DNA of 64,000 nt from an uncultured Actinomycetota bacterium (GCA_964595565.1 CAZQQX010000006.1:2817-66816); one strand, 5' to 3'; positions 40,186 to 59,715 are shown, numbered from the stretch's first letter. Program-made: numbers and translations. Notes: generated by a model from the letters alone, not told the origin.

Positions 40186-40222
40186 TTATTATCCCCGTAT
40201 TAACTCATTTTTATTATTTAAA

Positions 40223-41863: not shown

Positions 41864-41874
41864 AAAAATACCCG

Positions 41875-43287
41875 CTAAAAATTTCTAATCCAGCTTTTTA
41901 TAATTTTATCCTGAATCCTGTGGTCAGTTCTTATTTTAATCCTTCCTGTCAGATTTTTGGGCAATAAATAGAAAAGTTCAAAAAATACTCTAATTCTTGC
42001 AGGTATGTCAACCCTTTTTTGCCTCATACCCTTTAACAGACCTGATAGATAATATAAAATATGAATCAAACCTGAAACAACAAACGTCAGATAACACCTG
42101 ATAAACAGGAGCGGCCAGCCACACTTGAAAATCATTAGAAGCCTATTTCTTATTACATAATAGGTAAAATCATAAGACCATTCCCTGCCCGTGCCACAAT
42201 GAAAATGCCTGGCAACAGAACCGGGAGCAAAGAAATTTTTCCAGCCTGCCAGTCTTGCCCTCCAGAACAAATCAATATCCTCATAATAGGTAAAAAAACT
42301 TTCGTCGAAATAACCTGTTTCCTCCAGCATTTCCCTGTCAAGCATAATACTGCTTCCGGAAAGGCCAAAAACTTCCTCAACGCGATTATACTGGCCTTCA
42401 TCAATACTTTCCATACCCCTGTCTCTGCTGTAAAAAGATTTATTTATCTTAACGCCACAACTATTGATTATATCCTTACAGTTAATAAAATACTTTTTAG
42501 GGATTTTTATTTTTATTGTCTTTAATCTTTTTGAGAGTTTTACATCCTTTACTATTTCTTCACCTACTACTACCTGTAAGTTATTCGGTGAGATATAAGT
42601 TGCCGCTTTGAACTGCAACTCCATATCTCTTTCAGTGTTTGCCACCGGTATGGCAAGTATCGCATTGTCCTGTGTCCAGTGATAACTTCTCCCGTTACTG
42701 TCAGACTCAGCAGGATAGAACCCGTCCAGGTACTTAATATTATTTTCTAAAGGGTTATTATAATCTACGGCACCATTACCATCATTTATTATGGTTAAGT
42801 CACATATTTTAACCCCCAGTCTTCTTGATTTTTTGCTGTTTTTATTTTCACTCTGGCCGGTACAGCGGGTAATAATCTGAAAAGGAAGATAACTGTAATA
42901 AAAAACCACTTTGGAGCCCACAGCTCCTATTTTTGAATCACCGGTTGATTGTTTGAAAATAGACAGCATTTCAGACAACCAATCTTTTTCTACGATACAG
43001 TCATTATTTATTAAAGCTATATATCTGCCTTTTGAATGTCTGAATCCTTCATTATTCCCGCCGGCATAGCCCCTGTTCTCCCCGAGTGCGATTACTTCCA
43101 CCCACGGAAATTCTTTTTTTACAAATTCTACTGAACCATCGGTAGAGCCGTTATCGACCATTATTATCTGAATTTTATCAGCAGAGTAATTAAGACTAAT
43201 AATAGAATTAAAAAGATTTTTTAAAAATAATTTGCCATTAAAATTTACTGTTATGATTGATATTAAAGGGTCATCATCCTCGCTCAA
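41875..43287 (-). CDS. family-2 glycosyltransferase (large, about 470 aa)
   Basis: LISIITVNFNGKLFLKNLFNSI...MVDNGSTDGSVEFV. Confidence 0.75.
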   Translation of the reverse strand: MSEDDDPLISIITVNFNGKLFLKNLFNSIISLNYSADKIQIIMVDNGSTDGSVEFVKKEFPWVEVIALGENRGYAGGNNEGFRHSKGRYIALINNDCIVEKDWLSEMLSIFKQSTGDSKIGAVGSKVVFYYSYLPFQIITRCTGQSENKNSKKSRRLGVKICDLTIINDGNGAVDYNNPLENNIKYLDGFYPAESDSNGRSYHWTQDNAILAIPVANTERDMELQFKAATYISPNNLQVVVGEEIVKDVKLSKRLKTIKIKIPKKYFINCKDIINSCGVKINKSFYSRDRGMESIDEGQYNRVEEVFGLSGSSIMLDREMLEETGYFDESFFTYYEDIDLFWRARLAGWKNFFAPGSVARHFHCGTGREWSYDFTYYVIRNRLLMIFKCGWPLLFIRCYLTFVVSGLIHILYYLSGLLKGMRQKRVDIPARIRVFFELFYLLPKNLTGRIKIRTDHRIQDKIIKSWIRNF

Positions 43288-43318
43288 TTAAAACCTCACC
43301 TTACCTTTAATCAGGATA

Positions 43319-43717
43319 CTAGCTTCTGGAAATTACAATTACCCCGATCGTTATTACAATTGCTCCTATCCAGCGCACAGGATTAACATCCTCTTTCAAT
43401 ATAAATTTTGAAAGAACAAGCACCATTACATATGTAAAACCAATAAATGGATAAGCAAAGCTCAAATCCACTACAGATATTACTATAAGCCATATAGCAG
43501 CAGAAATTACATATAAAAACAGGCCGGTTAAAATCAGGGGGCTTTTTATCACCCCCAGAAATAATTGCTTTAAAAAATCAAACCCTTCAATATTGACTAT
43601 TCCGATACGATTTATCCCTATTTTTAATAGTAATTGTCCCCCGACGGCTATGGAAATACTCAGCAGTATTAGAAGTATAGAACCTGTTAAACTCAAATGC
43701 CCGCTCCTTTTAATCAT
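43319..43717 (-). CDS. small 4-TM EamA/SMR-like membrane protein (putative lipid-linked sugar flippase subunit)
   Basis: 132 aa, four predicted TM helices, DMT-superfamily half-size architecture, embedded in a GT cluster. Confidence 0.5.
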   Translation of the reverse strand: MIKRSGHLSLTGSILLILLSISIAVGGQLLLKIGINRIGIVNIEGFDFLKQLFLGVIKSPLILTGLFLYVISAAIWLIVISVVDLSFAYPFIGFTYVMVLVLSKFILKEDVNPVRWIGAIVITIGVIVISRS

Positions 43718-43772
43718 AATTTTAAGTATTTATTCTTATTAAACCCGCTTTTAGAAAAATCACCAGTTAAAA

Positions 43773-46094
43773 TTATATTTTCTTTACAAGATAATATCTA
43801 TTGGAAACTGAAAGCCCGATTATCCTGTCAATATTCTCAAAATCCCGCAACAGGACTTCCAGTTTCTGGTCAATGTCTATAACCGTTCCCGATTTATTTC
43901 TGGGTTTAAATCCCCCCAGAATTTCTCTCAGGCTGCTGATATTATAACCCAGATTTTTAACTTCTTCATAAAGAGTCCTGAAAATATTAAAGTATATAAG
44001 TAAGAGCCTCTCACGGTTTTTACGATTTAGTTCATTAATTTCCCTGTTTATCTGTAGCTGGATATTATTATTAATGGCTTTAATTGATTCATTGTAGCTC
44101 TTTCTTAAATTCTCAAAATACATACTGGTAAGAAGATACATATATCTTCTTAGCTTTCCTTTTATGGTTTTATCTTCCGTAAGCTCCTCTGAACCCAGAA
44201 TATCCAGCCGGCTCAAAAGTTTCAATTCATCAAAGTTTTCCTTATTTAATTTTATTTCAAAAAGTTCAAATAATTCATTTTCTCCATATACCTCGTCCGT
44301 CTTATTACCACCGACAAATACCGGATTCTTTTCAAACTTATCCCATATTCCTTTTTCCATGATTTCAAATCCTGCATTTTTAAATATAAATTCAATGGTA
44401 AAATCATCAATCCTTGAACCTGTTCTATCTTCCCTGCTTCCCTCACCCAGAAGTTTATAAATTCCTCTCTTTTCTGGCATGGAAAAAAATAACAGGCCTT
44501 CTTTTTTTAATTTTGAAGCCAGCACATTTGTCAGGTCATAGAAAAATTTTGGAGTAATTTTTAGAAAAGCGTTATTTAAAATAATTCCATCAAACTTTGT
44601 TCTCTGGGTTATTTTAGATTTCAAAATCCCGACTTTATCCAGGCCCGAATATTCATCTTCATCATCAGATAAAACAAAGTCACCGTCCACTTCAAGATTA
44701 AAAATTTTACCCACATCTTTTTTATTTATAATATCTTCGTCCCTGTATTTATTAGAAGTTATTTTTAAAACATTCGCGCAACCCTCAAAATTCTTCTTTA
44801 TAATTCGCGAAATCTTACTATTCTGTAAATCTATCATCTCAACTATTTTTTTCTTATCCAGTGAATAATAAGAATTAACACAATATTTAACCAGTGGTTC
44901 AGTTACATTTTCCCAGTAAAACCGGGGAGCAATCCTATTTAAATTTTTACTATAAATTTCTTTTAAGCTTTTATTGGTAACCACACTTTCTATTACTCTG
45001 GCAAGCTGGTGCGTATCCTCATAACTTACCACCTCACCAATATTCTCGCTCTTTACAATTCGTGCAATAGAATCACCCTCGGTGGTTATTACAGGAAGCC
45101 TCGCCCATATGTAATCAATGACCCTGGTCCTGTAGGAAAATTCCGTTTCAATCCTGTCACTATGAATGGATAATCCCGCATCCGAATCCAGCAGAACAGC
45201 CTGCCTCAGGTCATACGGGGTCCATTCATTAAAAAATATATTTTTATCATATAAATCCAGCTCTTTTGCCAGATTTATAGCTTCCACACACTTTTTCATC
45301 CGGGGAAGCTTGGGGTCAGGGTGATTTACCCCCATAAACACCAGCTTTATATCTTTCCTGTTTCTTGTAATTTCCCATATTGCTTTTATCGCTGTGGTAG
45401 GGTCAAGCCAGTTCCATATTCCACCTCCCCATAAAACTAACTTATCTTCTTCACTAACGTCAGGTACAATATCCCTTATGGAAAAATTATTGCGCCGGGG
45501 CGGTTCGGAAGGTATGCCGGAAGGTACTATATCTATCAAATTTCTTAAAGTATTGTCGGAGTCATAATTGTATGGATTGATCCTGCCCATAGCATTCAAC
45601 ATTCCTACCCAGTAATCCCTCTGTTTTTCACTTGCACAGATAAAAAAATCTCCAATGGTAAGCTGGAGCTTTAATATATTTAAATTATTCTTATCAATCC
45701 TGAGTCTTTCTACCATATCACTTTCCCTGAACATCTCCAGGCTCTCAAGATTAAAGGGATTATAAAGGTCTACAATAATCTTTCCCTTAAAGTTTTTCAG
45801 GAAAGGAAAATAATAAAGGATATGCCCCTGTATTAATATAATTTCAGAATTCTCAATGCTTCTCTGCAGGCTCTTATAGCTATTTAATTTATACTGCCTG
45901 GTTCTAAATCCTTCGATATCAATATCTACTCTGTTGGGAGTAAGTAAAGTAACATCAAGATAATTGGATAGAATCTTTGCAAATTCATAGAAACGTATGC
46001 CGGGCCCGGCCATTTTTTTACCAATTACATCATAGCTTATGATACATATTCTTGATCGATTTTTCTTGCCAGGTTCAACAACTTCTTTCTCCAT
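43773..46094 (-). CDS. multidomain protein: GT4-like glycosyltransferase fused to a methyltransferase-like domain and a C-terminal coiled coil
   Basis: The N-terminal approximately 400 aa carries a GT-B retaining motif (ETEFSYRTRVIDYIWARLPVITTEGD). The middle region FDGIILNNAFLKI...GLLFFS resembles class-I SAM-MTase motifs. The tail is heptad-rich. Confidence 0.6.
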   Translation of the reverse strand: MEKEVVEPGKKNRSRICIISYDVIGKKMAGPGIRFYEFAKILSNYLDVTLLTPNRVDIDIEGFRTRQYKLNSYKSLQRSIENSEIILIQGHILYYFPFLKNFKGKIIVDLYNPFNLESLEMFRESDMVERLRIDKNNLNILKLQLTIGDFFICASEKQRDYWVGMLNAMGRINPYNYDSDNTLRNLIDIVPSGIPSEPPRRNNFSIRDIVPDVSEEDKLVLWGGGIWNWLDPTTAIKAIWEITRNRKDIKLVFMGVNHPDPKLPRMKKCVEAINLAKELDLYDKNIFFNEWTPYDLRQAVLLDSDAGLSIHSDRIETEFSYRTRVIDYIWARLPVITTEGDSIARIVKSENIGEVVSYEDTHQLARVIESVVTNKSLKEIYSKNLNRIAPRFYWENVTEPLVKYCVNSYYSLDKKKIVEMIDLQNSKISRIIKKNFEGCANVLKITSNKYRDEDIINKKDVGKIFNLEVDGDFVLSDDEDEYSGLDKVGILKSKITQRTKFDGIILNNAFLKITPKFFYDLTNVLASKLKKEGLLFFSMPEKRGIYKLLGEGSREDRTGSRIDDFTIEFIFKNAGFEIMEKGIWDKFEKNPVFVGGNKTDEVYGENELFELFEIKLNKENFDELKLLSRLDILGSEELTEDKTIKGKLRRYMYLLTSMYFENLRKSYNESIKAINNNIQLQINREINELNRKNRERLLLIYFNIFRTLYEEVKNLGYNISSLREILGGFKPRNKSGTVIDIDQKLEVLLRDFENIDRIIGLSVSNRYYLVKKI

Positions 46095-46179
46095 TATTTC
46101 TCCTCTGCCGCTTTAAAAATTATCCAAAAGCCTTTTTACGTTAAAAACTCCAGGTTATTTCTTTATTTCAAGATTGCAA

Positions 46180-47226
46180 TCATTTTAACTCTAATTTATT
46201 TAAGATTAAATGATTTTTTAATTTAATTATCAAATTACAGGGTAGAAACAGAAAATTTATAAAATAAGCATAAAATAAAGGCAGAAACTGGTCAACTGTT
46301 GACTCTTTCTTTAACCATCTCAGCTCGGCTCTAAAAAAAACTTTTAAAAATGTCAAAAAATCCATATTGATTATTGCACATCTGATTCTGTTTTTATGGT
46401 AAAACCTGTAGAAATTTCTGCTGAATTTTTTTACTGAAGCTCCTTCAAAATGCCGGGCAACAGAATCGGGGTTTACTACAACTCGCCTTTTAATTTTTTT
46501 AAGTTTAAGACAATAATCAAGTTCCTCAAAATAAGCAGGGCGATACCCGGCATCAAACCCGCCCAGATTACTGAATAACCTGAAATCCGTAACAAAAAAA
46601 GCTCCGGTAACATAATCTACATCTTTTATTCTATCTTCACGGTACAGCTCGCCTTTCCCATTTTCAGTCTTCCCTGTTTCATTCTTAATAACAGAATAAT
46701 CTTTTCCGGAATTTATATGATAGGTAATGAAATTATCTCGTATTCTCCCTCCATAATGCTGGATGGTGACACTGTTATAATCAAGAATGAGTCCTCCTGC
46801 AGCTCCTATCCTGACTGACCGGGATTGTCCCCTGTTTATTTTTTCATTTACCGCTTTATAAAAAGAAACCATTTTCTTTAAAGAGCCCCTGTTAATATAG
46901 ATATCCGGATTTAATAAAATTAAAAACTCCGGCCCTCTGCCGGTATTTTCCTTTTTTGCTTTTATGAAATTAAAAAACGCATGATTAACCGCACCTGCAA
47001 ATCCGATATTTTTCCTGAGTGCAATTAGTTTGAAATTACCGGCATCTAACCCGGGATACATATTCCTGAATTCTCTTATTTTTGTAACTGTTTCATCTTT
47101 AGAAGCATTGTCGGCTACAATCAGAAACCACTCTGTATAATCCTGGGCAATTATTGAATGAAGGCATTTTTCAATAAAATTCTCACTGTTATAAGTAACA
47201 ATTATTATCAGGCTTTTATAATTCAT
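46180..47226 (-). CDS. family-2 glycosyltransferase
   Basis: IIIVTYNSENFIEKCLHSIIAQDY...VADNASKDETV. Confidence 0.8.
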   Translation of the reverse strand: MNYKSLIIIVTYNSENFIEKCLHSIIAQDYTEWFLIVADNASKDETVTKIREFRNMYPGLDAGNFKLIALRKNIGFAGAVNHAFFNFIKAKKENTGRGPEFLILLNPDIYINRGSLKKMVSFYKAVNEKINRGQSRSVRIGAAGGLILDYNSVTIQHYGGRIRDNFITYHINSGKDYSVIKNETGKTENGKGELYREDRIKDVDYVTGAFFVTDFRLFSNLGGFDAGYRPAYFEELDYCLKLKKIKRRVVVNPDSVARHFEGASVKKFSRNFYRFYHKNRIRCAIINMDFLTFLKVFFRAELRWLKKESTVDQFLPLFYAYFINFLFLPCNLIIKLKNHLILNKLELK

Positions 47227-47302
47227 AACGAAAAAATTAATAACAGAAATATTTTGAATACTTGCATCTTTTTAAATATAGCATCCGTGCTTGCTTAAAT
47301 AT

Positions 47303-48877
47303 TCAGTGAAATATTCTCCTTTTAGCAACTTTAAAATAACCATATATTTTATAAATCAGATTCTTGCTGACGATTCCTTCAAGCTCGGATATTCTCCTGT
47401 CCCTTTCTTCTATCATTTGCTTCTGCCGGAGAACTATCTCATCAATATTCCTCAGGGCTTCTTCTCTGTTTAGAAATAATTTCCTTTCCTTCCCTTTATC
47501 CGGGGAAAATACAGGGTTTCTAACCCATTCTCTCAATCTTAAGGTAGTCCTAGTGAAATTAAAATTTTTCAATGCATAAATTTTTCCCGCAGCTGCAGTT
47601 TTTTCCACCTCACTGCGATGTGCTGCCATGTAAATTAATTTATCGCTTAATTCATTATAATCATAAGGTTTAAATGTATAACCAATTTCTTCTTTTTCTA
47701 TAATATCTGTCAATTCACACACATTTGAAGACAGCACGCACAGACCGGCTCTGAACCAATCCATAATACGGTTTTTACTGCCCAGCCTGACTTCATAAAT
47801 ATCTTTATCAATGTTTATACCGGCATCAGCTTCAAGGTAGTAATTCGGGACATCTTCTCCGGGTACCCATCCTTTCATTATAAATCTATCTTTATAAGAG
47901 CTTTCATTTATCATGGAAAGAAAATGAGGATAAGTTTTCAGGTCCTGTTCGGGAATCTCGCCTCCAGTTGATACAAATTTAATATCAGGATTTCTTTTCA
48001 TGGCAATTATCAGTCCTTTAAACAGGGTATCAACATCTGTCCAGGTGTTATATCCACCGGTCCAGAGAACCACGAAATCCCCTTCTTTTATGCCATATTT
48101 TCCCCTGATTACTTTTCTGGTATGTTTATACCCCGTTTCAGGGATACCACATGGAATCACATCTGTAAAATCATAACCGGCGGTATAGCGGTTAAGCCTG
48201 CCCGCGGCTCCCAGCTCTCCTATTAAAGCATACTTCTGTCTTGAAGATACACAGGAAAAACCATCCGCCGCGGATATAATATTATACTCACTGTTCCAGT
48301 AATGGAAAAGACACTCATCACTGCCGTCCATACAGGCGCGCGCCTGTGCTTCGGCCATTACATGGCCAAACAAATCAGCCCGAAACGGTATATCTTTATT
48401 AGAATAACTGATTAGTTTGGACAGAATATATGAAGGATAAAAAGTACATCCAATAGCACAGTCAGGTTCGAATTCATTAAATATCCGGGACATAATTTCA
48501 ACATTCTCAAAATCCTCTTTTCTCAATATGTTGTACTCAAAGCTATATTCAGGACTGCCCTTTATCCCACTATCAACACTGACAGAATTACCGGCATACG
48601 CTTTCCTGTCCCCCATGCCTCCGGAGTTGCTGCTTTTAAAATAACCGGAATTCTTTTTATTTACCGGGCCACCTTCACTATAAACAAAATTTTTCTTATG
48701 CTCTGACTTGTAACCATCAGGATATGCTGAAGGAACAGCATAATTACATACACAAATTTTATGGCCCTCCTCTAACAGTGGCAGCAAAAACTGCCATGTT
48801 CTTATACCGGTTCCATATACCTTCCTGTCATTTTCAAATGGAAGGGGGCTCATGCCTGCTATAAATATTCTGCTCAT
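47303..48877 (-). CDS. GT-B (GT4-like) glycosyltransferase with C-terminal coiled-coil tail
   Basis: Two Rossmann-like halves and a heptad-rich C-terminus; weaker signature than the other GT4 genes. Confidence 0.55.
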   Translation of the reverse strand: MSRIFIAGMSPLPFENDRKVYGTGIRTWQFLLPLLEEGHKICVCNYAVPSAYPDGYKSEHKKNFVYSEGGPVNKKNSGYFKSSNSGGMGDRKAYAGNSVSVDSGIKGSPEYSFEYNILRKEDFENVEIMSRIFNEFEPDCAIGCTFYPSYILSKLISYSNKDIPFRADLFGHVMAEAQARACMDGSDECLFHYWNSEYNIISAADGFSCVSSRQKYALIGELGAAGRLNRYTAGYDFTDVIPCGIPETGYKHTRKVIRGKYGIKEGDFVVLWTGGYNTWTDVDTLFKGLIIAMKRNPDIKFVSTGGEIPEQDLKTYPHFLSMINESSYKDRFIMKGWVPGEDVPNYYLEADAGINIDKDIYEVRLGSKNRIMDWFRAGLCVLSSNVCELTDIIEKEEIGYTFKPYDYNELSDKLIYMAAHRSEVEKTAAAGKIYALKNFNFTRTTLRLREWVRNPVFSPDKGKERKLFLNREEALRNIDEIVLRQKQMIEERDRRISELEGIVSKNLIYKIYGYFKVAKRRIFH

Positions 48878-49060: not shown

Positions 49061-51070
49061 ATGAGATTTATAATAATAATACTTCTAATTATTTTTTTAT
49101 CAATAAGCACCCTTTTAAGCATCGCCGTAATCAGTACAACAAAAGACGCCGAAAGCCGGGAAACCACTGCAGAAGGGCCGCTATCAGCAAAACCAAAAGA
49201 TAAAAATAAATTACCTGTCTCAAGGGTAGAAACAATAAATGATATACAAAAATTTTTTATTACTAATCGCGAATACATAAGTAAAGATATCAGTGACACC
49301 CCGGCCGGGGATACTGCTGATGGCCCTGAAACTCCGGATGATAAGGATGACAGTTCTTTAGATTCTGCAAACCAGGATGCAGAAGTAGCTGATAATAAAC
49401 AAAACGAAGATAGAGAAAATACGGATGAAGAAGAAACTACGGAAGAAGAGGAAGAAAACAGAGAAGAGATAAAAGCCGGTACCATAAAATTTTTTCTGGA
49501 TGGAGATATGGAAAACGGCATATACCTCGGGGAAACAACTTCAAACCTTGAATCTGCGGAAGCATTACAGCTGTACGGTGAGGATTTTATAAATACAGGT
49601 TTTAAATTTAACATTAAAAATGACAGTAATCTTAATCTTGAAGCCGGCTCTAACCACTATATTTATATTTACTTTTACACCCGGCAGTCAGAATGGGGCT
49701 ACACAAGACAACAGGTAAGTTTATCCGGAGAAGAAAAATGTGAGAAAAAAATTACCATATTTGTAGAAAAACCGGAAGATAAGATTATAACCTCCAGCCT
49801 AAAGATAATTAAAGGATGGGCTGTTGACCTTAGAAACAAAGAAAACCCCGGAATATCAAACATTGAAATCTACCTTGATGGACCGGAGAGTTATGGAAAA
49901 TTTATCGGGAACGCTGAATATGGAACCCCTAGAGAGGACGTTGCCGGCTATCTTGAAAATTCAAACTACTTAAATAGCGGTTATACATTTGAAAATCTGA
50001 TTGACCTTGAGCCCGGTTCCACCCACACTATATTCATTTATGCCTTTAGCTCCGTGGACAATTCGTTTAATTATGAAACAAGAGATATTTACTTATCCGG
50101 GATAAGAGAAGAAAAAGCAATAATTAATGCCAGGATTGACACACAAAAGTTCAATGATGAGAACATTATTGAAATAACCGGACTGGCAATTGATAAAAAT
50201 GTCCTTGAACAGTACCTTGAAGAAAAACGAAAGGCCGTGGAAGAGTCTTCAACAGATACCGGCCGGTACAATACCAAAAAAATAATATTTAATTCCAATA
50301 GAGATGGTAATGAAAATATATACAGTATAAATATTGACGGTACAGGACTCACCCGCCTGACCGGCAGCACTGGCAGCGACCTGTATCCGGAAGTATCGCC
50401 TGATGGAGAAAAAATTGCCTATACTGCTGATATAGGCGGGGTCTGGCAGATTATGGTTATGGACTGGAATGGTGATAATAAAAAGCAAATTACCACGGGC
50501 AACCATAGATGTGCCTATCCTTCCTGGTCTTATGACGGAAAATATATATATTTTGAGATATATAGTGATGGAGACTGGGAAATATATAGAATTAAAAGCG
50601 ACGGAACAGAGCAAAAAAGGCTTACCTTTAACCGCGACTCCCATGACTGGCACCCAACCGGGCATCCTTCTGAATATATGGTTATCTACGAATCAGGAAC
50701 TACCGGACATGAAAATATTTATGTAATGAATCACGACGGCTCCGGAAAAAGAAAAATATGTACTGATGGGCCAAGAAGAAGGGTCCCGGATGTATCACCG
50801 GACGGAAGTAAAATAACTTATATGAGATATTCTGATAGATACGCTGATATCTGGATTATGGATTATACCGGCCAGAATGAAACCAGGTTAAACAGCAACC
50901 CTGAAGAGGACGGCCACCCATCTTTTTCACCTGATGGGAAATATATAATTTATGAAGAAAGAAAAGGCTCCCGCGAAGATTTAATTTTAATAGATCTTGT
51001 CACTGGAGAAAAAACCAATCTGACTAATTCTTCATATATTGATAAAGATGGCAGTTTCCTTTACCGATAA
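49061..51070 (+). CDS. signal-anchored protein: acidic linker, two copies of an approximately 100-aa unassigned domain, and a C-terminal PD40/TolB-like beta-propeller
   Basis: N-terminal hydrophobic anchor, a D/E-rich segment, two internal repeats (IKFFLDGDMENGIYLGE... / IEIYLDGPESYGKFIGNAEYG...) and TolB-type PD40 repeats (NSNRDGNENIYSINIDG...SPDGEKIAYT... WSYDGKYIYFE). Confidence 0.7.
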   Translation: MRFIIIILLIIFLSISTLLSIAVISTTKDAESRETTAEGPLSAKPKDKNKLPVSRVETINDIQKFFITNREYISKDISDTPAGDTADGPETPDDKDDSSLDSANQDAEVADNKQNEDRENTDEEETTEEEEENREEIKAGTIKFFLDGDMENGIYLGETTSNLESAEALQLYGEDFINTGFKFNIKNDSNLNLEAGSNHYIYIYFYTRQSEWGYTRQQVSLSGEEKCEKKITIFVEKPEDKIITSSLKIIKGWAVDLRNKENPGISNIEIYLDGPESYGKFIGNAEYGTPREDVAGYLENSNYLNSGYTFENLIDLEPGSTHTIFIYAFSSVDNSFNYETRDIYLSGIREEKAIINARIDTQKFNDENIIEITGLAIDKNVLEQYLEEKRKAVEESSTDTGRYNTKKIIFNSNRDGNENIYSINIDGTGLTRLTGSTGSDLYPEVSPDGEKIAYTADIGGVWQIMVMDWNGDNKKQITTGNHRCAYPSWSYDGKYIYFEIYSDGDWEIYRIKSDGTEQKRLTFNRDSHDWHPTGHPSEYMVIYESGTTGHENIYVMNHDGSGKRKICTDGPRRRVPDVSPDGSKITYMRYSDRYADIWIMDYTGQNETRLNSNPEEDGHPSFSPDGKYIIYEERKGSREDLILIDLVTGEKTNLTNSSYIDKDGSFLYR

Positions 51071-51119
51071 TAACTACCTTTTGCAGTTTAATATATTTTC
51101 CGGGTCCACTGTACTGCAT

Positions 51120-51581
51120 TTAATCGGTAACCTGATGCCTGAACCTTTTGCTTGAAGCTCTGAGTTTTAATCTAACCGATGTACCCATGGAAATACCGAG
51201 CCACAGGCCCCAGACAGTTTCCCTGGAAAAGAAATAAAAAGCAAGCTCTGAAATAGTAAGACTGGAGTTAAACAGTTCAGTTACTACTGTATTTACCAGA
51301 CCGGTTTTATATAGCAATAGCGCAATAGCAGGTATACAGCCTGAAATCAAAAATGTTTTTATGTCAAAATAGTTCCTATTTACTATCGGCTTCATACTGA
51401 GAATTATCAGTAATCCAATCATAAACCCAAGAATAAGAACAATAATGAGCCTCAAAAAACTTAAAAAACCGGCCGGCAGGCTGTAAGCTGCCAGTGCGGC
51501 GGTAATATTATCAAAATATGCAAAAGCGGTATAATAGAGAATTATATTTATAAAACTGAATATGATAAGAAAAATTCTCAT
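51120..51581 (-). CDS. 4-TM membrane protein, unassigned family (paralogue of 53533..54063)
   Basis: 153 aa, four hydrophobic helices, convergent with the PD40 gene; about 45% identical to 53533..54063. Confidence 0.5.
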   Translation of the reverse strand: MRIFLIIFSFINIILYYTAFAYFDNITAALAAYSLPAGFLSFLRLIIVLILGFMIGLLIILSMKPIVNRNYFDIKTFLISGCIPAIALLLYKTGLVNTVVTELFNSSLTISELAFYFFSRETVWGLWLGISMGTSVRLKLRASSKRFRHQVTD

Positions 51582-51812
51582 TTTTTTATCCGCTGTCTTC
51601 TTTCTATTTATATCATTTTTTTTAAAATGACTGATAAGCAGATGTTAACTTAAAAAAATACTAATTTCAATTAATATTGTATTCTGTTATACTTTAAAAC
51701 TTGAAAAAATATTAAATGCATTTATAGTTTATAATTATTATCAGTTTATTTAACTTAATCTTAATGTCCAAATCCTATAATCTGTAATATAGATAAAAAG
51801 GTATAAAAAAAA

Positions 51813-53579
51813 ATGAGAACAGTAACTACAATTATTATAGTTTTGCTCCTGGTAGCTGTTATATTCCTCGGGTTTATAGTCTTAAAATATTCCGGAACAG
51901 GAACTCCTGCCGAAGAAGAAACTGCCGGGCCTGAAACAGGCGAACCCATAGTTGAAGAAGAGGAGCCAGAGCCTGTAGTTGAAGAAGAACCGGTTCAGGA
52001 AGTGAAAGAGGATGAAATCGCAGTAATCGAAATATATCTTGATGGTGACAGGAATAATGGCATACTGCTGGGAGAAGCAGAATATGGTATGGCCTCCCCG
52101 GAAGCTTATAATATCTATGGCGGGGAATTCTCAGAAAGCGGTTTTCTCCTGGCCGAAAAAAACAGAGCATACACCTTTGAGCCCGGCTCTACCCACTACC
52201 TTTATATCTATGTTCTTATACCGGAATATGGATGGAATTATACCCGCCAGAAGGTTAGCATCCCGGGCAGCGAAGAGACAGACGAAAATATCAGGTTATC
52301 TATAGATGACCCTTCCCACAATGAAACAATAAAAGAAGCTGATAAATCAAATATTAAAATTTCAGGCTGGTCAGTTGATGTCAGCCAGCAAAGTGACCCC
52401 GGTATTGACCGTATTGAAATATATCTAAACGGGCCTAAAGAATTCGGGAAGCCTGCCGGTGAAGTGGACTATGGAATTGAAAGACAGGATGTAGCCGGCG
52501 CTCTTGGAAACGCCGGTTATACCAGTTCCGGATATTTATTAAATTTTGACGGTAGTAATCTTGAAGCCGACAGCGAAAACACCCTGTATATCTACTCTTT
52601 CTCTACTTCAGGAACATATAACCTGGGCTTAAGAAATATTGTAATAGAAGGTGAAAAGAAGGAATCAATAGCCCTAATTTCAGCACAGGCTAACCTGAGC
52701 AATGAATCCATAGAGATAAGCGGCTGGGCAATAAATAAAGACCACATTACCGGAGGCAGACCGAGAGACCCCGATACAGAATACTCAACCAGAAAGATAG
52801 TATTTGCTTCCAGCAAAAATGGAAACGAGGATATATTCAGCATGAACATAGATGGTACCGAACTTACGCAGCTGACAGATTATTCCGGAAAAGACAATTA
52901 CCCTGCTGTTTCACCCGATGGTAAAAAAATTGCCTACACTTCAGATATCAATGGTGTCTGGCAGATAGTAGTTATGAACTGGGATGGAACCGAAAAGGAG
53001 CAGATTACCTACAATCCGTGGAGAAGCGGGTATCCTGCCTGGTCCTTTGATGGAAGATATATTTTCTTTGAAGCATACATAGAGGGCGACTATGAAATAT
53101 ACAGGATGAACAGTGATGGAAGCAATATGAAGAGAATTACATTCAATCCAAATATCCCGGACTGGCATCCTTACGGTCATCCTTTCCAGTACAGAGTCAT
53201 TTATGAATCAGGGACGTCAAGGAACGAAAAAATATATATGATGGATTATGACGGTACTAATATTAAACAGCTATCAGACGCAGACATGCGGCAGAGGGTC
53301 CCTGCAATTTCTATTGATGGAGAAACTATCGTTTTTAGTGACAATGAATCCGTTTATACTATAAATATCAATGGAGAAAATTTACAAAAAATCAGCGGGA
53401 ACCTCTCAAACAGCAGACACCCTGACATATCTCCGGATAATAAATATATAACCTTCGAGGGCAATGTTGACGGCCAGCTTGAAATATTTATAGTCAATGC
53501 CGATGGTTCAAACCTAAAGAGACTTACCAGTATTACTGGAAGTGATTATGACCCTGTTTTTCTGTATCAGGCTCCCTAG
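51813..53579 (+). CDS. paralogue of 49061..51070: signal-anchored repeat-domain / PD40 beta-propeller protein
   Basis: Same architecture: TM anchor, an E/P-rich linker, two IEIYL(D/N)G repeats and PD40 repeats; about 60% identical to gene 49061 in the propeller region. Confidence 0.7.
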   Translation: MRTVTTIIIVLLLVAVIFLGFIVLKYSGTGTPAEEETAGPETGEPIVEEEEPEPVVEEEPVQEVKEDEIAVIEIYLDGDRNNGILLGEAEYGMASPEAYNIYGGEFSESGFLLAEKNRAYTFEPGSTHYLYIYVLIPEYGWNYTRQKVSIPGSEETDENIRLSIDDPSHNETIKEADKSNIKISGWSVDVSQQSDPGIDRIEIYLNGPKEFGKPAGEVDYGIERQDVAGALGNAGYTSSGYLLNFDGSNLEADSENTLYIYSFSTSGTYNLGLRNIVIEGEKKESIALISAQANLSNESIEISGWAINKDHITGGRPRDPDTEYSTRKIVFASSKNGNEDIFSMNIDGTELTQLTDYSGKDNYPAVSPDGKKIAYTSDINGVWQIVVMNWDGTEKEQITYNPWRSGYPAWSFDGRYIFFEAYIEGDYEIYRMNSDGSNMKRITFNPNIPDWHPYGHPFQYRVIYESGTSRNEKIYMMDYDGTNIKQLSDADMRQRVPAISIDGETIVFSDNESVYTININGENLQKISGNLSNSRHPDISPDNKYITFEGNVDGQLEIFIVNADGSNLKRLTSITGSDYDPVFLYQAP

Positions 53580-54063
53580 CAAGTGATGGAAGCTCTACTT
53601 TTTCTTTTCCTTCAATTGAAACATGTTTGTATTTTCTTCCGGGAAAACTGAATCGGATTGATGAACCTATAGAAAAGCCCAGCCATATGGACCATATAGT
53701 CTGCCTTGAGAAAAGATAAAATACAAGCTCACTCAATCGTTCACTGGAGTTAAAAAATTTATTAATAATAAAGCTGGTAATTGTACCTTCAGATAGCACC
53801 ATACAGATAAAAGGGAAAAAACCGACTATCACCAGGTTCTTAAAACTAAAAAGGCTTCTTTTTATTTTTAATTTTAATACAAGCATCACTATTACACCTA
53901 TACAGAACCCGACAATTAACAGGACCGCCAGCTTAATATAATTTGCTGCTATTGCTGATATATCTAATCCTTCAAGAATCTCCAGAATCTTATCAAAATA
54001 AGAATAAATAAAAACATAAAAAACAGCATTAATAAAAGAAAAAACTATTAAAAAAACTCTCAA
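53533..54063 (-). CDS. 4-TM membrane protein, paralogue of 51120..51581
   Basis: MRVFLIVFSFINAVFY... / ...FNSSERLSELVFYLFSRQTIWSIWLGFSIGSSIRF align with the other copy; the 3' end overlaps the convergent PD40 gene by about 47 nt. Confidence 0.5.
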   Translation of the reverse strand: MRVFLIVFSFINAVFYVFIYSYFDKILEILEGLDISAIAANYIKLAVLLIVGFCIGVIVMLVLKLKIKRSLFSFKNLVIVGFFPFICMVLSEGTITSFIINKFFNSSERLSELVFYLFSRQTIWSIWLGFSIGSSIRFSFPGRKYKHVSIEGKEKVELPSLAREPDTEKQGHNHFQ

Positions 54064-54173: not shown

Positions 54174-56012
54174 TCAAAGTCTCTGTCCGATGCTGCCGAG
54201 ATACTGGGAAACATAACTATAGACTGTATGCGCCACAACCGAAGCACCTGCTGAACTGTAGTGCATGCCATCATTTAGATAGCCACCGGGATTCTGAGAA
54301 AGCGGAGTTGTAACATCTATAACCACTGCACCGTGCTTTGCAGCAATCTGCCTTATTGTGTCATTATATTTAGCATAATTTTCTTTTTCCGGCCAGTTCA
54401 GTGGCCCGATAAGGTTAACAAATACCCTTGCGCCAAGACTTTTTGCTTTTACAATCAGGCCCTCCATGCTAACCGAGAATCCGGAATAACGGGGACCCAC
54501 ATCATTGGTTCCATAGGCAATTATAACTATATCCGGATTATGCACAGCAACGGTGCTTTCAAATCTCGCATTCCCCTCACGGGTTAACTCGCCACTCTTC
54601 GCACTGGCAATGGTATTATACTCTGCATAGGGATAATTAGCCTCCAGAAGCTGGTCAAATGTCTGCACCCAGTTTGATTTAGCTATCAGTGAATCGCCCA
54701 TGGCTACAATAGTCACACTGGCATTCCCCCTTACATTCAGGCTTTTAGGCGGCAGCCCAACAACCGCATTGCTGCTTTCAATTTTAAAATGAGTGGTTAT
54801 TGTACCGCCTGAATTAGCCAGATTTTCATTCACCATTATCCTAAAAGTAATCTCTTTTTCCTCTTCTACGCCCAGGTTCTCAAGGTCCCAGATAAGCCCC
54901 CTTATATCATCGCTCCACCTTATACCCTCCGCGGTACCGGACCGGCTGACGTAAGTAGCCCCTTCCGGCGTGGGGCAGATAACACTATAATTTTCTTCTT
55001 TCTTCATACCGGTGTTTCTGACAATAATTTTTACACTTATAGTCTCTCCCGGGTATAGATTGCCTCCATTTGTATCGTATATATAGTTTTCCGATGTAGT
55101 TAAATCAGAAAACAGGCTCAGTTTTTCTTCCACTTTTTTTTCTATTACAATTGACCCGTATTTTAAAATACTTTCACCGGTTATAACTTCTTCGCCCATT
55201 AAGTCTTCTTTCACCCTGACCTTAAAGGAAAGAACCCTTTTTGTATTCACTTTAAGGTTGTCAATTTCCCATAATACGCTGTTATTGTTGTATTCCCCCT
55301 GGCCGGTAATAGAATCTTTGATTATGTCCGTGTATTCTGATATAGCACTTTTTATTTCAACACTGGATGCACTCATATCGCCATCATTTTTCACTGTTAA
55401 ATCATACCTCAGAACATCACCCAGCATGATGACCCCGCCATTCTCATCTACAGCTTTTACACTGAAGCTACTCAAATCAGGGCTACTTTCAACTTCGGCG
55501 GTCAGAACGGGGCTTATGGTATTATTAAACGTCTCTATCCCTATAAGGTAATTAAAATTCACCTTATCCAACATGATTACAGTACCATCATCCAGCGGGC
55601 TAATTACTTCCACCACAAAACACAGAGTACCTCTCTCGTTCTTCTTAACCTCTCCAATGTTAAAACCCAGTTTTTTGCCGTCCCCGGCAATGTTTAAAAC
55701 GTCACTGCGGTCCGATGACACAAAGGAAGTATGTTCCGGTAAACCAACTTCTATAACCAGTTTGCTTACATTCCTGTTACCCGTATTTTTGTAATTTACT
55801 GCATAAGTAATCCTGTCCCCCGGTTTTATATTATCCCCTGTATCACTGTATACATAATTAAAATTTTCATCATCAAAATTGGGTTCTGTCAGATAGAATT
55901 TAAAATAATAAATTAAAAAAGCAGCTGCAGCTATGCCCAGAGAACCGGCCACAATAAAAATCCACTTTTTATTACTTTTTATATAATCCAGTATTTTTTT
56001 AATTATCTTCAT
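54174..56012 (-). CDS. signal-anchored surface protein with DUF11-type repeat domains and a C-terminal SGNH/GDSL hydrolase domain
   Basis: GDRITYAVNYKNTGNRNVSKLVIEVGLPEHTSFVSS DUF11-like repeats. The C-terminus has VTIVAMGDSL (GDS block I) ... IVIIAYGTNDV (block III). The ATG at 56012 is preferred over the upstream TTG at 56084. Confidence 0.65.
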   Translation of the reverse strand: MKIIKKILDYIKSNKKWIFIVAGSLGIAAAAFLIYYFKFYLTEPNFDDENFNYVYSDTGDNIKPGDRITYAVNYKNTGNRNVSKLVIEVGLPEHTSFVSSDRSDVLNIAGDGKKLGFNIGEVKKNERGTLCFVVEVISPLDDGTVIMLDKVNFNYLIGIETFNNTISPVLTAEVESSPDLSSFSVKAVDENGGVIMLGDVLRYDLTVKNDGDMSASSVEIKSAISEYTDIIKDSITGQGEYNNNSVLWEIDNLKVNTKRVLSFKVRVKEDLMGEEVITGESILKYGSIVIEKKVEEKLSLFSDLTTSENYIYDTNGGNLYPGETISVKIIVRNTGMKKEENYSVICPTPEGATYVSRSGTAEGIRWSDDIRGLIWDLENLGVEEEKEITFRIMVNENLANSGGTITTHFKIESSNAVVGLPPKSLNVRGNASVTIVAMGDSLIAKSNWVQTFDQLLEANYPYAEYNTIASAKSGELTREGNARFESTVAVHNPDIVIIAYGTNDVGPRYSGFSVSMEGLIVKAKSLGARVFVNLIGPLNWPEKENYAKYNDTIRQIAAKHGAVVIDVTTPLSQNPGGYLNDGMHYSSAGASVVAHTVYSYVSQYLGSIGQRL

Positions 56013-56115
56013 TATTAATACACAATTATTTTTACCACCATTAAATTCGTTAAAAACAATTCCAATATTATAGCAAAAAGACAACCTCTAGATAAAGTAT
56101 TATTTGAGCGGGCTT

Positions 56116-57717
56116 TTACCTTATCTCTATTTCAATATCATCACAATTAATATAATTATTTTTGTAAGTCGCCCTGAATTTTACAACAGACCGTCCGGAA
56201 TCGGTGCCCCTGACTTTAACCATTAAATTAATCTGACCATTACTATCTATAATATATGAATCGCTTACCCACATATATACACCCTCACTTAAACCCGGAT
56301 ATTGTTTTACGTATCCTTCAGGGCTGACTCCGGTCAGCTCAACGTTATCCGGAAGCTCAAGTTCCAGTGAAGTGATCCCGGCCCCATCTTCACCGGTATT
56401 GCCTATAATAAATTCTATGATAAATTCTTCTCCCTCTTTTTTTATCTTATCACCAGCTTCATAGCTAATTTCAATACTTCTATCCAGATTTAAATAATTA
56501 ACATACTGTTCGGGAGAAATCAGGCTGTTAAACTCCACTCTCTTCATATTAAAGAGGTCAATTGTCTCTGTATCCTCTGCCCCGCCGGCATGCCTTAACG
56601 CACCTCTGTAGCCGGCTTCCACAAATAAAGGCGTTTTATCAGGATTATAATTTCCCTTTGGTAGCGCAACAAATAAAACTTCATTTCCCAGATGGGATTC
56701 AATATCCTCTTTTGATCGGGTAAGTTCATATAAAATTGTCTCATCGTAAGCAATTCCCAGCCTGACATGATTTACTGTATGGGATTGAAACTCGCAACCA
56801 TATTCATACATTTCTTTAATCTCGGGCCATATAAGTATCGGGCGTATGGGCCTGTCCGCACTGGCTTCTTTCTCAAAATATGCATTTGTTTTTCTATCAG
56901 CTTCAGTATCCCCTATTGCGCCGGTTACCAGAAATACAGTCATCCTGTACCCGTACTTTTTAAGAATGGGGAACCCATTGGTATAAACATCCTGAAACCC
57001 GTCATCGGATGTTATAATTACCGGTTTTTCAGGCAGCGACCTGCCGAAATCTATGTAATCTAAAAGCTCCTTCAACGTAATAGTCTCGTAACCATACTCT
57101 TTTAATACGCCGCACAGTTTGTCAAAGTGGCCGGTATAAAGCTCTATCGGCTCTTCAATATGATCCTCTATGGCATGCATGCCTATTATGGGAATAAAAA
57201 CTCCATCAAATTGTCTTTCACCGTAAACCAGCATTTTACAATCAGGACCTATAAAAGAGTCTACTTCATCTGAAGATATCTCCAGCCCGACCTCAGCCCG
57301 GGTGTCCTCATTTATATCATCTATTAAAGTCAGACCGGTTACAAAATTACTTTCTTCCCCCGCTCCAAGAACATCTATATTCCATGATGTCCGCCCGATG
57401 CCTGGTTCAAACAGGTCGTGAGTTATAAGATTAACTTCCACATTTTTTGCTTCCGCACCGCCGCTATTTACCACACTTATATTTACCTTTATATCTTCAC
57501 CTCCATATGTATTTCCGCCATTTGCATCAATTAGTTCTATATAAGAACCGGAAAATGATGGCAATGGCCCCTCTCCGGACGAACTGGCGTCACTATCACC
57601 GCTGCTTATAACCTGTTCAAACCCAGAACAGCCGGTAAAAATTACCGGAAAAATTATTATAAAAGCAAATAAAACTTTTATATTATTCTTTTTAATGAGT
57701 TTTCTCACTGCAAACAT
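56116..57717 (-). CDS. lipoprotein with a NodB-type polysaccharide deacetylase domain and a C-terminal DUF11-like beta-sandwich domain
   Basis: Lipobox VIFTGCSG. PIITSDDGFQDVYTNGFPILKKYGYRMTVFLV is the NodB motif 1/2 region. The C-terminal approximately 105 aa are shared with the gene at 57823. Confidence 0.75.
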   Translation of the reverse strand: MFAVRKLIKKNNIKVLFAFIIIFPVIFTGCSGFEQVISSGDSDASSSGEGPLPSFSGSYIELIDANGGNTYGGEDIKVNISVVNSGGAEAKNVEVNLITHDLFEPGIGRTSWNIDVLGAGEESNFVTGLTLIDDINEDTRAEVGLEISSDEVDSFIGPDCKMLVYGERQFDGVFIPIIGMHAIEDHIEEPIELYTGHFDKLCGVLKEYGYETITLKELLDYIDFGRSLPEKPVIITSDDGFQDVYTNGFPILKKYGYRMTVFLVTGAIGDTEADRKTNAYFEKEASADRPIRPILIWPEIKEMYEYGCEFQSHTVNHVRLGIAYDETILYELTRSKEDIESHLGNEVLFVALPKGNYNPDKTPLFVEAGYRGALRHAGGAEDTETIDLFNMKRVEFNSLISPEQYVNYLNLDRSIEISYEAGDKIKKEGEEFIIEFIIGNTGEDGAGITSLELELPDNVELTGVSPEGYVKQYPGLSEGVYMWVSDSYIIDSNGQINLMVKVRGTDSGRSVVKFRATYKNNYINCDDIEIEIR

Positions 57718-57822
57718 TACATGCTTCCATCTTTTTACTTTATCTATTTACCCGCCTTATTTTTTATCAATATAGCAGAATAAATCTAATAAACTAATAA
57801 ATCCAGGTTAATTCTTTTTAAT

Positions 57823-59715
57823 TTAATCTTTTATCTCTATTCCTAAACTGTCACAGTCAACGTAAAACCCGCCGGTTGTCAGTCTAAATTTTATAAATGA
57901 CTCACCGGGCGCCATTCCTTTTAGTTTTACAATCAAGTTTATCTCTTCCCCGCCCTCTATGACATATGAATCACTTACCCACATATATATACCCTGGCTC
58001 AGGCCGGGGTCCTGGCTGATATACCCTCCGGGGGAAGTTTCTATGAATTCAATATTTTCAGGAAGCTCAAGCTCAAATGATGTAATCTTAATTCTTTCTT
58101 TATTCTTATTCCTGACAATATATTCAATGGTGAATTCCTCCCCGAACCTTCTGGTATAACTATCGCTAAAGTAGCTAATTTCAGGAATAGACGCTGCAGG
58201 TTCAGTAACCCTGAACAGTCTTAACCATTCGTCATACCTGCTCCATAAATAACTTTTCCCCACCTGTTCGGCATTAAATAATTTTTTTATTACCTCTTCA
58301 TTGCCCACATAATATACTGTAATACCATCTTCAAGAGCTTCCATCATATTGCTTGCCGTATATTCCGGCACCTTATGAGATATATATTTTATGTTTTTGT
58401 CTCCATACTCATATTTGTCCACAAACATCCCGATATTTGTTGATTTAGCCAGGGCATACACCCTGGAATTACTTTCCATATTCTTAAACGCTTCATCCCA
58501 GAATTTATAAACGTAAGAAACCTCCGAATGGTCAAGCGAAGGATAATTTTCTATTATCAGGCCGGCCGGTATAAAAAGAAAAAACAATAATATGATAGTG
58601 ACCAGAAAATATTTTAAGAATTTATCAATCCCCAGAACCTTTCTTCCCATTAATGACTTAATAAACAGCAGAATCACCCCATCCAGTATAAACAGCAACC
58701 CGAAAGCAATATAAAAAGAAAATACAATCATTGAATACAGTAAATAATTTCTGAGTGCATGCCCTGCATATAATGGAGGAAAAACAAAGTTTACAATCAC
58801 CAGCAAAAATGTGCACAGGGCAAACTTTACATTTTTTTTGACCAGAATGATAAATCCTATAAGCGCTATGATAAGAAGCAGGATACCATAACTTTCATAA
58901 AACATACCAAGGTAATCTTTAATTACCTTTAATATTAATGAAATGCTCTTGTCCCCAAAACTTCCTCCATGGACTTCCCCTGTTACACCCCTTCCGGTTA
59001 TATAATAGAAAAATTTTAAAGGGCCGGTTACTTCCCCGTAACCCTGGAGCGACCTTATGGGAAGATACAGATATGATAAAAGAGGCAGAATAAAATATAA
59101 TATGCTGATTATAATTGCCTTTGCGCTTTTAAAAATCCCCGGATTCACAATAATAACATATAAAATAATGACCGGGACCAGGAAAAAAACAAGAGGGTGG
59201 TTGGTTAAACTTAACCCCAGGCAGAAAGCAAAAAAATAAAGATACTTTCTGGTTTTATTTTCATTATAGGTAATAGCCGAAAAAAACAATAAAGTCATAA
59301 AAAAAGTCTGTAATGTATCAAATTCCAGCCTGTTTGCCACTTCCCAGAAAGGCACGGCAAAAGCAAATATCATTGAACTTATAAAGCTTACGAACACATT
59401 TTTTACCAGTTTATTAATTGATAGGAATAAAAATAAAATGGTAAGTGCGCCGAAGATTGCTGAAAAAAGATTGAGCCTGTAAGCTATATCTCCAACCGGC
59501 AGTAAGGTAAAAAGCTTTTCCAGCATGGAAAAAACCGGATATCCGGTAGGAACCATAAGACTCATTTCGGTAACCTGAAGAGCGTACCATGCAGTATCCC
59601 CGCCTATTAGTTTACGTTCCAGAGTCATAAGATAAATAACCAGGGGAACAGCAAAAGAAAGAATTGATAATATAACTGCCTGTTTTCCTGTTATGAATGC
59701 TTTAACCTTCTCCAA
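57823..59715 (-). CDS. polytopic GT-C-fold membrane glycosyltransferase-like protein (DUF2723/TMEM260- and ArnT/PMT-like) with a C-terminal DUF11-like extracytoplasmic domain
   Basis: More than 10 predicted TM helices. An early loop GGDTAWYALQV...VPTGYPVF resembles the DUF2723 HPPGYPL region. The soluble C-terminal domain is about 55% identical to the C-terminus of the deacetylase. Confidence 0.55.
   Translation of the reverse strand: MEKVKAFITGKQAVILSILSFAVPLVIYLMTLERKLIGGDTAWYALQVTEMSLMVPTGYPVFSMLEKLFTLLPVGDIAYRLNLFSAIFGALTILFLFLSINKLVKNVFVSFISSMIFAFAVPFWEVANRLEFDTLQTFFMTLLFFSAITYNENKTRKYLYFFAFCLGLSLTNHPLVFFLVPVIILYVIIVNPGIFKSAKAIIISILYFILPLLSYLYLPIRSLQGYGEVTGPLKFFYYITGRGVTGEVHGGSFGDKSISLILKVIKDYLGMFYESYGILLLIIALIGFIILVKKNVKFALCTFLLVIVNFVFPPLYAGHALRNYLLYSMIVFSFYIAFGLLFILDGVILLFIKSLMGRKVLGIDKFLKYFLVTIILLFFLFIPAGLIIENYPSLDHSEVSYVYKFWDEAFKNMESNSRVYALAKSTNIGMFVDKYEYGDKNIKYISHKVPEYTASNMMEALEDGITVYYVGNEEVIKKLFNAEQVGKSYLWSRYDEWLRLFRVTEPAASIPEISYFSDSYTRRFGEEFTIEYIVRNKNKERIKITSFELELPENIEFIETSPGGYISQDPGLSQGIYMWVSDSYVIEGGEEINLIVKLKGMAPGESFIKFRLTTGGFYVDCDSLGIEIKD

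Follow-up and report, generated by a model that had tools for sequence, protein, structure and literature searches.

Probable Big_7-Type Ig-Like Domains Precede the TolB-Like Propellers of Two Paralogous, Putative Envelope Proteins of an Uncultured Actinomycetota Bacterium

The four copies of a repeated domain found in two paralogous proteins of an uncultured Actinomycetota bacterium are very probably diverged members of the bacterial Ig-like family Big_7 (PF17957), with an E-set-type β-sandwich, that stand before a TolB-like β-propeller. They belong to a widespread sub-type characterized by a GWA.D motif in strand B and an inserted 'YG..R.DV' helix loop. Both proteins, designated A and B, are encoded in the window, which is the whole stretch of 64,000 nucleotides analysed here, and each contains two copies. 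The array formed by these copies is out of register with respect to canonical relatives, since it begins with a core that lacks its hairpin and ends with a hairpin that lacks its core, an arrangement that could correspond to a natural circular permutation with a nested domain. A and B are likely membrane-anchored, extracytoplasmic, non-catalytic proteins of the cell envelope, and their genes lie among genes for glycan synthesis.

Architecture of Proteins A and B

A and B are 42% identical across A140-669 and B70-586 in a pairwise comparison, and the layout of their parts is summarized in Table 1. Both open reading frames are present as an earlier, sequence-only reading of the window had described them, and the repeat peptides that it quoted were recovered where it had placed them, in A aa 141-345 and B aa 70-275. 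The annotation obtained with Pfam-A and NCBIfam is confined to the C-terminal halves of the proteins, in which PD40, DUF5050, and a TolB-like propeller are recognized; PD40 (PF07676) passes its gathering score in A and B, with 88.3 and 78.6 bits against a cut-off of 20.9. All copies of the repeated domain are N-terminal to this PD40 propeller, in agreement with the earlier description. Except for the anchor, both proteins are predicted to be located outside the cytoplasmic membrane. The acidic linker is also rich in Thr.

Table 1. Parts of proteins A and B and the convergent small membrane proteins, with nucleotide positions in the window and residue numbers in each protein.
Feature	Position	Strand	Residues (aa)	Description
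Protein A	49061-51070	+		Open reading frame of 669 aa; PD40/DUF5050 by Pfam; layout by local HMMs
A N-terminus			2-24; ~28-138	Hydrophobic anchor; then long acidic low-complexity linker
A core 1	49481-49732	+	141-224	Big_7-like strands C-G, without A-B hairpin in front
A hairpin 1	49748-49831	+	230-257	ITIFVEKPEDK..IIKGWAVD; A-B strands of domain 2, the canonical one (assigned to core 2 by homology with B, where covariation gives the pairing)
A core 2	49850-50101	+	264-347	YG.PREDV motif
A hairpin 2	50126-50197	+	356-379	AIINARIDT..IIEITGLAID; extra A-B hairpin, no core behind
A β-propeller	50273-51067	+	405-669	PD40/TolB-like
Small multi-pass membrane protein	51120-51581	-		153 aa; convergent with A; part of a conserved two-gene cassette
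Protein B	51813-53579	+		588 aa; paralogue of A
B N-terminus			2-27; 25-62	TM helix; disordered acidic linker (AlphaFold2)
B core 1	52017-52268	+	69-152	
B hairpin 1	52284-52379	+	158-189	IRLSIDDP..IKISGWSVD; pairs with core 2 (DCA)
B core 2	52401-52655	+	197-281	YGIERQDV
B hairpin 2	52671-52739	+	287-309	ALISAQAN..IEISGWAIN
B β-propeller	52788-53570	+	326-586	PD40 by Pfam; nearest solved folds are TolB propellers
Small membrane protein	53533-54063	-		176 aa; convergent with B, overlapping the 3' end of B

The C-terminal propeller has its closest fold in TolB. The model of the B propeller matches the TolB structures 1c5k/2hqs with a Foldseek E-value of 1e-18 and a target-normalised TM of ~0.6, and resembles the six-bladed propellers of the TolB and YWTD types; moreover, the best NCBIfam match of both proteins is TIGR02800 (158-165 bits). 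However, the TIGR02800 scores, 165 and 158 bits, come from the propeller only and compare with a cut-off of 343, an anchor, a linker, and two Ig domains take the place of the N-terminal α/β domain of TolB, and the host is a MAG of the monoderm-lineage Actinomycetota with no Tol-Pal genes near A and B. A and B are not TolB orthologues.

Internal Duplication and Size of the Repeat Unit

In BLASTP comparisons, the two copies match each other within each protein (E 6e-8 for A1/A2 and 1.4e-7 for B1/B2), across the proteins (2.5e-6 for A1/B2 and 8e-12 for B1/A2), and at orthologous positions (3e-24 for A1/B1 and 6e-20 for A2/B2), and extended segments of unit 1 and unit 2 align over ~125 residues with E-values of 1e-8 to 5e-14. 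Smith–Waterman alignments give z scores of 9.3-15.7, the observed score being reached by none of 1000 shuffles. Since both types of score lie far beyond chance, the duplication is real, and the proposal of two tandem homologous domains in each protein, with four homologous copies distributed two each in A and B, holds.

The size of the domain, which had been put at approximately 100 aa, requires revision. The repeat unit comprises ~120 aa instead, made up of an 85-aa core (IEIYLDG...LSG) and a conserved β-hairpin of 25-30 aa (I.I..P....I.I.GWA.D) through which the alignment of units 1 and 2 continues, and an HMM of the four units finds two complete ~120-aa units in every relative. Because the unit has this length and a hairpin follows each core, the spans first delimited were too short and ended before the second hairpin of each protein. 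The structural domain, composed of a hairpin and a core, measures ~110-125 aa.

Assignment to the Big_7 Family

Direct searches of A and B with Pfam-A and NCBIfam yield nothing significant in the repeated region. The sole match there, of B163-209 to Big_7, scores 14.4 bits (E 0.063) and does not reach the gathering score of 24.1, and no match of A to Big_7 was found in Pfam at E ≤ 1. Likewise, CARDB (PF07705), DUF11 (PF01345), and Y_Y_Y (PF07495, gathering score 26.6 bits) have no Pfam match in A or B; CARDB and DUF11 occur instead in the neighbouring genes at 54174-56084 and 56116-57717. Searches of the region against all PDB chains, with phmmer and with profiles, returned chance-level matches only, and SecA, a fibre protein, and a taurine-binding protein were rejected as such (E 0.3-1.3). 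As A and B lie below the gathering score, their membership of Big_7 rests on transitive and profile evidence.

This evidence comes from a family-only profile, built from a 10-sequence alignment and searched exhaustively against 1.84 billion cluster representatives (50% identity clusters). With the E-value limit set to 1e-3, 1e-10, and 1e-30, the profile recovers 2150, 996, and 133 representatives, respectively. Outside the immediate family, the proteins recovered are large, contain several domains, and are matched by the profile in 2-9 stretches each. The best-matching stretch nearly always covers profile positions ~94-200, which correspond to hairpin 1 and core 2, and therefore the structural domain consists of a hairpin followed by a core, with ~105-115 aa. 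In the ten profile matches scanned with Pfam, Big_7 is found with E-values from 1e-9 to 4e-44, including P0067, with seven Big_7 copies (4e-44), P0065 (2e-26), and P0062 (4e-23), and the whole-library E-values of the profile against Big_7-annotated segments go down to ~1e-87. The spans of the window profile and of Big_7 coincide in these proteins (438-532 and 438-522 in P0065, 663-771 and 662-756 in P0072, 368-476 and 366-457 in P0067, respectively). Moreover, Big_7 is matched individually by 30 of 43 diverse domain copies, with a best E-value of 4.9e-12, and directly by 32 of the 82 full-length B orthologues scanned with Pfam, a subset of a larger alignment, at E ≤ 0.01 (best 6.5e-6). P0038, P0040, P0041, and P0051 are bridging proteins whose scores reach gathering level for Y_Y_Y or for Big_7.

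The earlier description of the domain as unassigned is accurate for a direct look-up of A and B in Pfam-A and NCBIfam and is superseded by the profile and orthologue searches, which give Big_7; the statement that the domain cannot be placed was mistaken, and the family-HMM search, set beforehand as its refuting test, found a BIG/Ig-like family, namely Big_7. A new β-sandwich family unrelated to the described ones, to which the absence of significant matches in the direct Pfam-A, NCBIfam, and PDB-sequence searches with A, B, and the family profile would lend itself, is scarcely credible in view of the retrieved Big_7 segments, the orthologues recognized as Big_7, and the Ig-like fold given by AlphaFold2 and Foldseek. 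Being a diverged Big_7 Ig-like module and not a new fold, the domain calls for no new family; a false lead is thus removed, and the repeated domain turns out to be largely ordinary.

The copies of the window share with Pfam Big_7 the strand order A-B-C-C'-E-F-G, the motif 'I.sP..g..v.g...I.GWA.D' followed by 'gi..VevylDG', and the occurrence in tandem arrays of extracytoplasmic proteins. They differ from Big_7 in scoring below its gathering score and in the presence of an insert of ~25 aa with respect to the 70-position model, deduced from the fact that ~92 residues fall on those 70 positions, which contains the 'YG..R.DV' helix and the 'NSGY' loop; furthermore, strands A-B are absent from the first window copy, and the last one has a surplus A-B hairpin behind it. 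The Pfam Big_7 model misses this large, insert-bearing sub-type, which comprises at least 2150 clusters at 50% identity and includes many cell-wall hydrolases, and could be widened to include it. Tandem copies of the sub-type are also attached to peptidoglycan amidases, glucosaminidases, subtilases, and glycoside hydrolases.

Two further Ig-like models, Y_Y_Y and Gmad2 (PF10648), also match portions of the intermediate domains: P0038, P0040, P0041, and P0054 are at or near the gathering scores of these models in the F-G or A-B region. However, these matches are partial (20-40 residues) and do not occur in A or B, and the Y_Y_Y gathering score is reached only by the remote relatives P0038, P0040, and P0041, whereas Big_7 spans the whole domain in far more relatives.

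Predicted Fold

The β-sandwich that had been suspected from conserved Tyr/Gly-rich positions is recovered in AlphaFold2 models of B, all of them all-β: the segment B62-322, modelled with a 29-sequence alignment, reaches a pLDDT of 92.8 and a pTM of 0.84, and full-length B, modelled with 114 sequences, 89.8 and 0.79, respectively. The full-length model contains five strands and a short helix in each core, two long strands in each hairpin, and the propeller from residue 326 onwards. In core 1, the strands comprise residues 71-76, 84-93, 110-116, 127-136, and 140-149, and the helix residues 96-102. Hairpin 2 is modelled as two strands with a pLDDT of ~90-95 even in B62-322, in which the propeller is not included. 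The best Foldseek matches of the Ig region are tandem Ig, FnIII, cadherin, and BIg adhesin domains (E ~1e-4). Thus, the predicted fold is an Ig-like β-sandwich with about seven strands per domain, two supplied by the hairpin and five by the core.

No solved structure of the sub-type was found, the sole PDB sequence match being 8c4d_A, which corresponds to EfAmi1, a prophage endolysin of Enterococcus faecium. Residues 217-313 of EfAmi1 match a broadened profile with an E-value of 4e-5, share the GW...RPDV...GF motifs, and are joined to a peptidoglycan amidase, as in many relatives. Unlike the arrays of the window, the EfAmi1 domain is single and C-terminal and does not stand in tandem before a propeller. 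This C-terminal domain is missing from the 8C4D crystal and has no experimental function (PMC10167349), and 8C4D was consequently rejected as a solved template of the sub-type.

Register of the Array and Pairing of Hairpins and Cores

In canonical relatives, such as the single-domain P0047 and the triple-domain P0038, a hairpin with strands A and B is followed by a core with strands C-G. With respect to this order, the array in A and B is out of register: local HMMs detect the order core-hairpin-core-hairpin-propeller in all complete relatives (129 of 129), and, therefore, no hairpin stands before core 1 and no core behind the last hairpin. P0075 and P0100, the only seeming exceptions to the order of the array, have diverged hairpins.

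In a mean-field DCA of 135 orthologues (Neff 57), the highest-ranked couplings connect hairpin 1 with core 2 (B181-247, 187-262, 188-260, and 183-244). The same contacts appear in an independent DCA of 583 canonical copies from unrelated proteins (Neff 510), in which the coupled pairs include B-F and B-E contacts (187-262, 189-264, and 182-242), Asp165-Arg224, and Trp186-Arg224. Since the couplings of the orthologues and of the canonical copies match, hairpin 1 and core 2 constitute a normal Big_7-like domain.

For hairpin 2, the partner is less evident. When the canonical contacts were used as a template and ranked on a 148-sequence alignment (null SD ~0.087), the mean percentile was 0.72 for hairpin 1-core 2, 0.66 for hairpin 2-core 1, 0.56 for hairpin 2-core 2, and 0.47, which is the chance level, for hairpin 1-core 1. 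The excess of the hairpin 2-core 1 pairing is ~1.9 SD and comes from 11 template pairs. Taken individually, the strongest DCA couplings of hairpin 2 lead to the linker and core 2, and the pairing of core 1 with hairpin 2 presents the fewest top-1% couplings, 15 observed versus 22 expected. Covariation, which with 135-148 orthologues (Neff ~60) is too shallow to fix the partner, weakly favours the folding of hairpin 2 back onto core 1. The loss of the canonical pair formed by Asp in the hairpin and Arg in the core does not co-vary cleanly between core 1 and hairpin 2: Ser95 is almost invariant, position 292 is mostly Asp or Glu, and both Arg and Asp are kept in three distant members only. The high pLDDT of hairpin 2 without the propeller, the high pTM, and the length of both G-to-A linkers, ~8-10 residues, fit with the fold-back.

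In the proposed arrangement, for which the chances seem about evenly balanced, the two domains would form an interlocked pair, domain 1 being a circularly permuted Big_7 with strands C-G first and A-B last, and the canonical Big_7 domain being nested in its G-to-A connection. The last hairpin would complete core 1 by folding back, giving rise to a compact and rigid two-domain module from which the propeller would emerge. If this is correct, a single corner of domain 1 receives the chain from the membrane linker and releases it to the propeller, the module constitutes a rigid side-arm beside the propeller and not a stalk, and the arrangement is fixed throughout a clade of uncultured Actinomycetota proteins. 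The invariant shifted register of the family may then be a natural circular permutation with a nested domain.

Alternatively, each core could form, together with the hairpin that follows it, a self-contained and circularly permuted Ig domain, the two domains being arranged as beads on a string. The repeat register in the sequence, which is core plus hairpin, would be in accordance with this possibility, as would the strongest individual couplings of hairpin 2, directed to core 2 and its linker, and the length of the G-to-A linkers, which exceeds the 3-5 residues of canonical arrays such as that of P0038. Nevertheless, it is improbable, because the couplings that rank highest across the alignment connect hairpin 1 with core 2 instead of core 1 and reproduce the canonical B-F/B-E contacts of the 583 domains (187-262 and others), and the template percentile of hairpin 1-core 1 is at chance. 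It is likewise improbable that hairpin 2 lies outside the Ig module as the first element of the propeller, for instance, a closure strand or a cap; its position directly before the propeller, with nothing Ig-like behind it, would suit such a role, but its strands persist in the propeller-free model, with the confidence values given above, and it keeps the strand B GWA motif.

Genomic Context and Distribution

Behind each propeller gene, in convergent orientation, lies a gene for a small membrane protein without an assigned family. With 38% identity (E 1e-38), these two proteins are paralogous to each other, and the product of 51120-51581 has no Pfam or NCBIfam match. On one side, the genes of A and B are flanked by GT1, GT2, and GT4 glycosyltransferases and, on the other side, by genes for DUF11 with GDSL/SGNH esterase, polysaccharide deacetylase, and a TMEM260/PMT_2-type glycosyltransferase, the PMT_2-like gene being located at 57823-59715. 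The full arrangement, including the duplication, is kept in two other genomes (L001 and L002) with 64-70% identity, and a more distant genome (L003) contains a single cassette in the same neighbourhood. The conserved pair of Ig-propeller protein and small membrane protein in a glycan-synthesis locus represents an uncharacterised envelope component, which belongs to a poorly known subsurface actinomycete lineage (Humimicrobiales). The bacteria concerned are uncultured sediment Actinomycetota.

The family is abundant and taxonomically narrow. At least 909 homologues of B were found at E ≤ 1e-10, more than 110 of them full length with 50-75% identity, under the source names 'DUF5050/PD40 domain-containing' or 'TolB protein', and all 14 genome loci correspond to MAGs of uncultured Actinomycetota or Humimicrobiales. 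A word-indexed search with the N-terminal region of A returned 12 fragments; the rarity that this number suggests was rejected as an artefact of the word index, given that exhaustive and full-length searches yield hundreds to thousands of relatives.

Possible Role in the Cell Envelope

The functional reading of A and B is drawn from their architecture and genomic context. As likely non-catalytic envelope proteins anchored in the membrane, they could combine an Ig module that orients or anchors the TolB-like propeller in the cell envelope with a propeller that would serve as a binding platform. The Ig module may also bind cell-wall glycan, a possibility raised by the association of its relatives with peptidoglycan hydrolases.

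A stronger version of this idea holds that the domains are not spacers or scaffolds and would act as specific carbohydrate-binding modules for the glycan made by the neighbouring glycosyltransferases. The fusion of the sub-type to cell-wall hydrolases and the glycan-synthesis context are compatible with it, and a profile of diverse copies, window copies included, detects the C-terminal domain of EfAmi1, at the E-value given above, which has been proposed as a peptidoglycan-binding module (PMC10167349). Against it, core 1 presents an invariant Ser at the position of the canonical Arg of the R.DV motif, and a spacer-only role is very common among the Ig-like Big domains. This stronger version is, on balance, unlikely.

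Elsewhere, in the ten profile matches scanned with Pfam, the partners of the domain sub-type are Amidase_3, Glucosaminidase, Peptidase_S8, and GH families.

Replacement of a Co-Varying Arg in the First Ig Domain

In the canonical Big_7-like domains, in which a two-strand hairpin precedes the core, the Arg of the 'R.DV' motif co-varies with the Asp and Trp of the hairpin. Core 1 of protein B, the second of the two paralogous propeller proteins A and B, has Ser in place of this Arg, and this Ser is invariant in core 1 throughout nearly all of the family. Arg is kept in core 1 by just three members, all of them distant (P0074, P0075, and P0100), and in them the hairpin motif 'EID' is retained alongside it. 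With the co-varying Arg replaced by Ser, a conserved internal contact has been lost from the first domain.

The paper on the Enterococcus faecium endolysin EfAmi1 (PMC10167349) gives no InterPro homology for the C-terminal domain of this enzyme. A profile broadened with diverse copies of the Big_7-like sub-type, including those of the window, matches residues 217–313 of the EfAmi1 sequence (PDB 8C4D) with an E-value of 4e-5, and the domain carries GW...RPDV...GF motifs; thus, it is probably a member of this Ig-like sub-type.

A Duplicated Two-Gene Cassette and Its Surroundings

The cassette, composed of an Ig-Ig-propeller gene and a small membrane gene, is present in tandem duplicate in the window, as well as in two genomes at 64–70% identity (L001, 5226-10227; L002, 5335-10260), and as one copy in a genome at 53% identity (L003, 8001-10294). 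Therefore, the duplication is old and has been retained within a sub-clade. The two small membrane proteins are themselves paralogues (38% identity, E 1e-38), and neither matched a family in Pfam and NCBIfam searches. The pairing of propeller gene and small membrane gene is kept in all three related loci, which suggests a functional two-gene unit.

The cassette is flanked by a long run of envelope-glycan genes, made up of glycosyltransferases (four GT2, three GT1/GT4, and one further GT2), a DUF11-repeat plus GDSL/SGNH esterase protein, a CARDB plus polysaccharide deacetylase protein, and a TMEM260/PMT_2-like glycosyltransferase. Since this PMT_2-like gene is present, the linkers of A and B, which are rich in Thr and acidic residues, could conceivably be O-glycosylated. 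A-type paralogues have a linker of about 110 aa and B-type ones a linker of about 40 aa; this is the chief difference in length between A and B, and would set their modules at unequal distances from the membrane. The antisense ORF opposite the linker of A seems not to be a gene but a side effect of the GA-rich composition of the coding strand.

The Glycos_transf_1 match of the 773-aa protein (E 9e-6) lies under the gathering score, and its C-terminal half, of about 350 aa, has no family assignment. This protein is conserved: L001, L002, and L003 each encode a counterpart of 769–771 aa in the corresponding place.

Coordinates of features in the cassette region
Feature	Position	Strand	Remark
Envelope-glycan genes	38141-48877	-
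Envelope-glycan genes	54174-59715	-
Envelope-glycan genes	60694-61650	+
773-aa protein	43773-46094	-	N-terminal half: marginal Glycos_transf_1 match
Tandem cassette	49061-54063
Ser-rich antisense ORF, 185 aa	49057-49614	-	opposite acidic linker of A
Disordered acidic linker of A, aa 28-138	49142-49474		anchor to Ig module
Small multi-pass membrane protein, 153 aa	51120-51581	-	convergent with 3' end of gene A
Disordered acidic linker of B, aa 28-66	51894-52010		anchor to Ig module
Core 1 Ser of B, aa 95	52095-52097
Matching core 2 position of B, aa 224	52482-52484
Small multi-pass membrane protein, 176 aa	53533-54063	-	convergent with, and overlapping, 3' end of gene B
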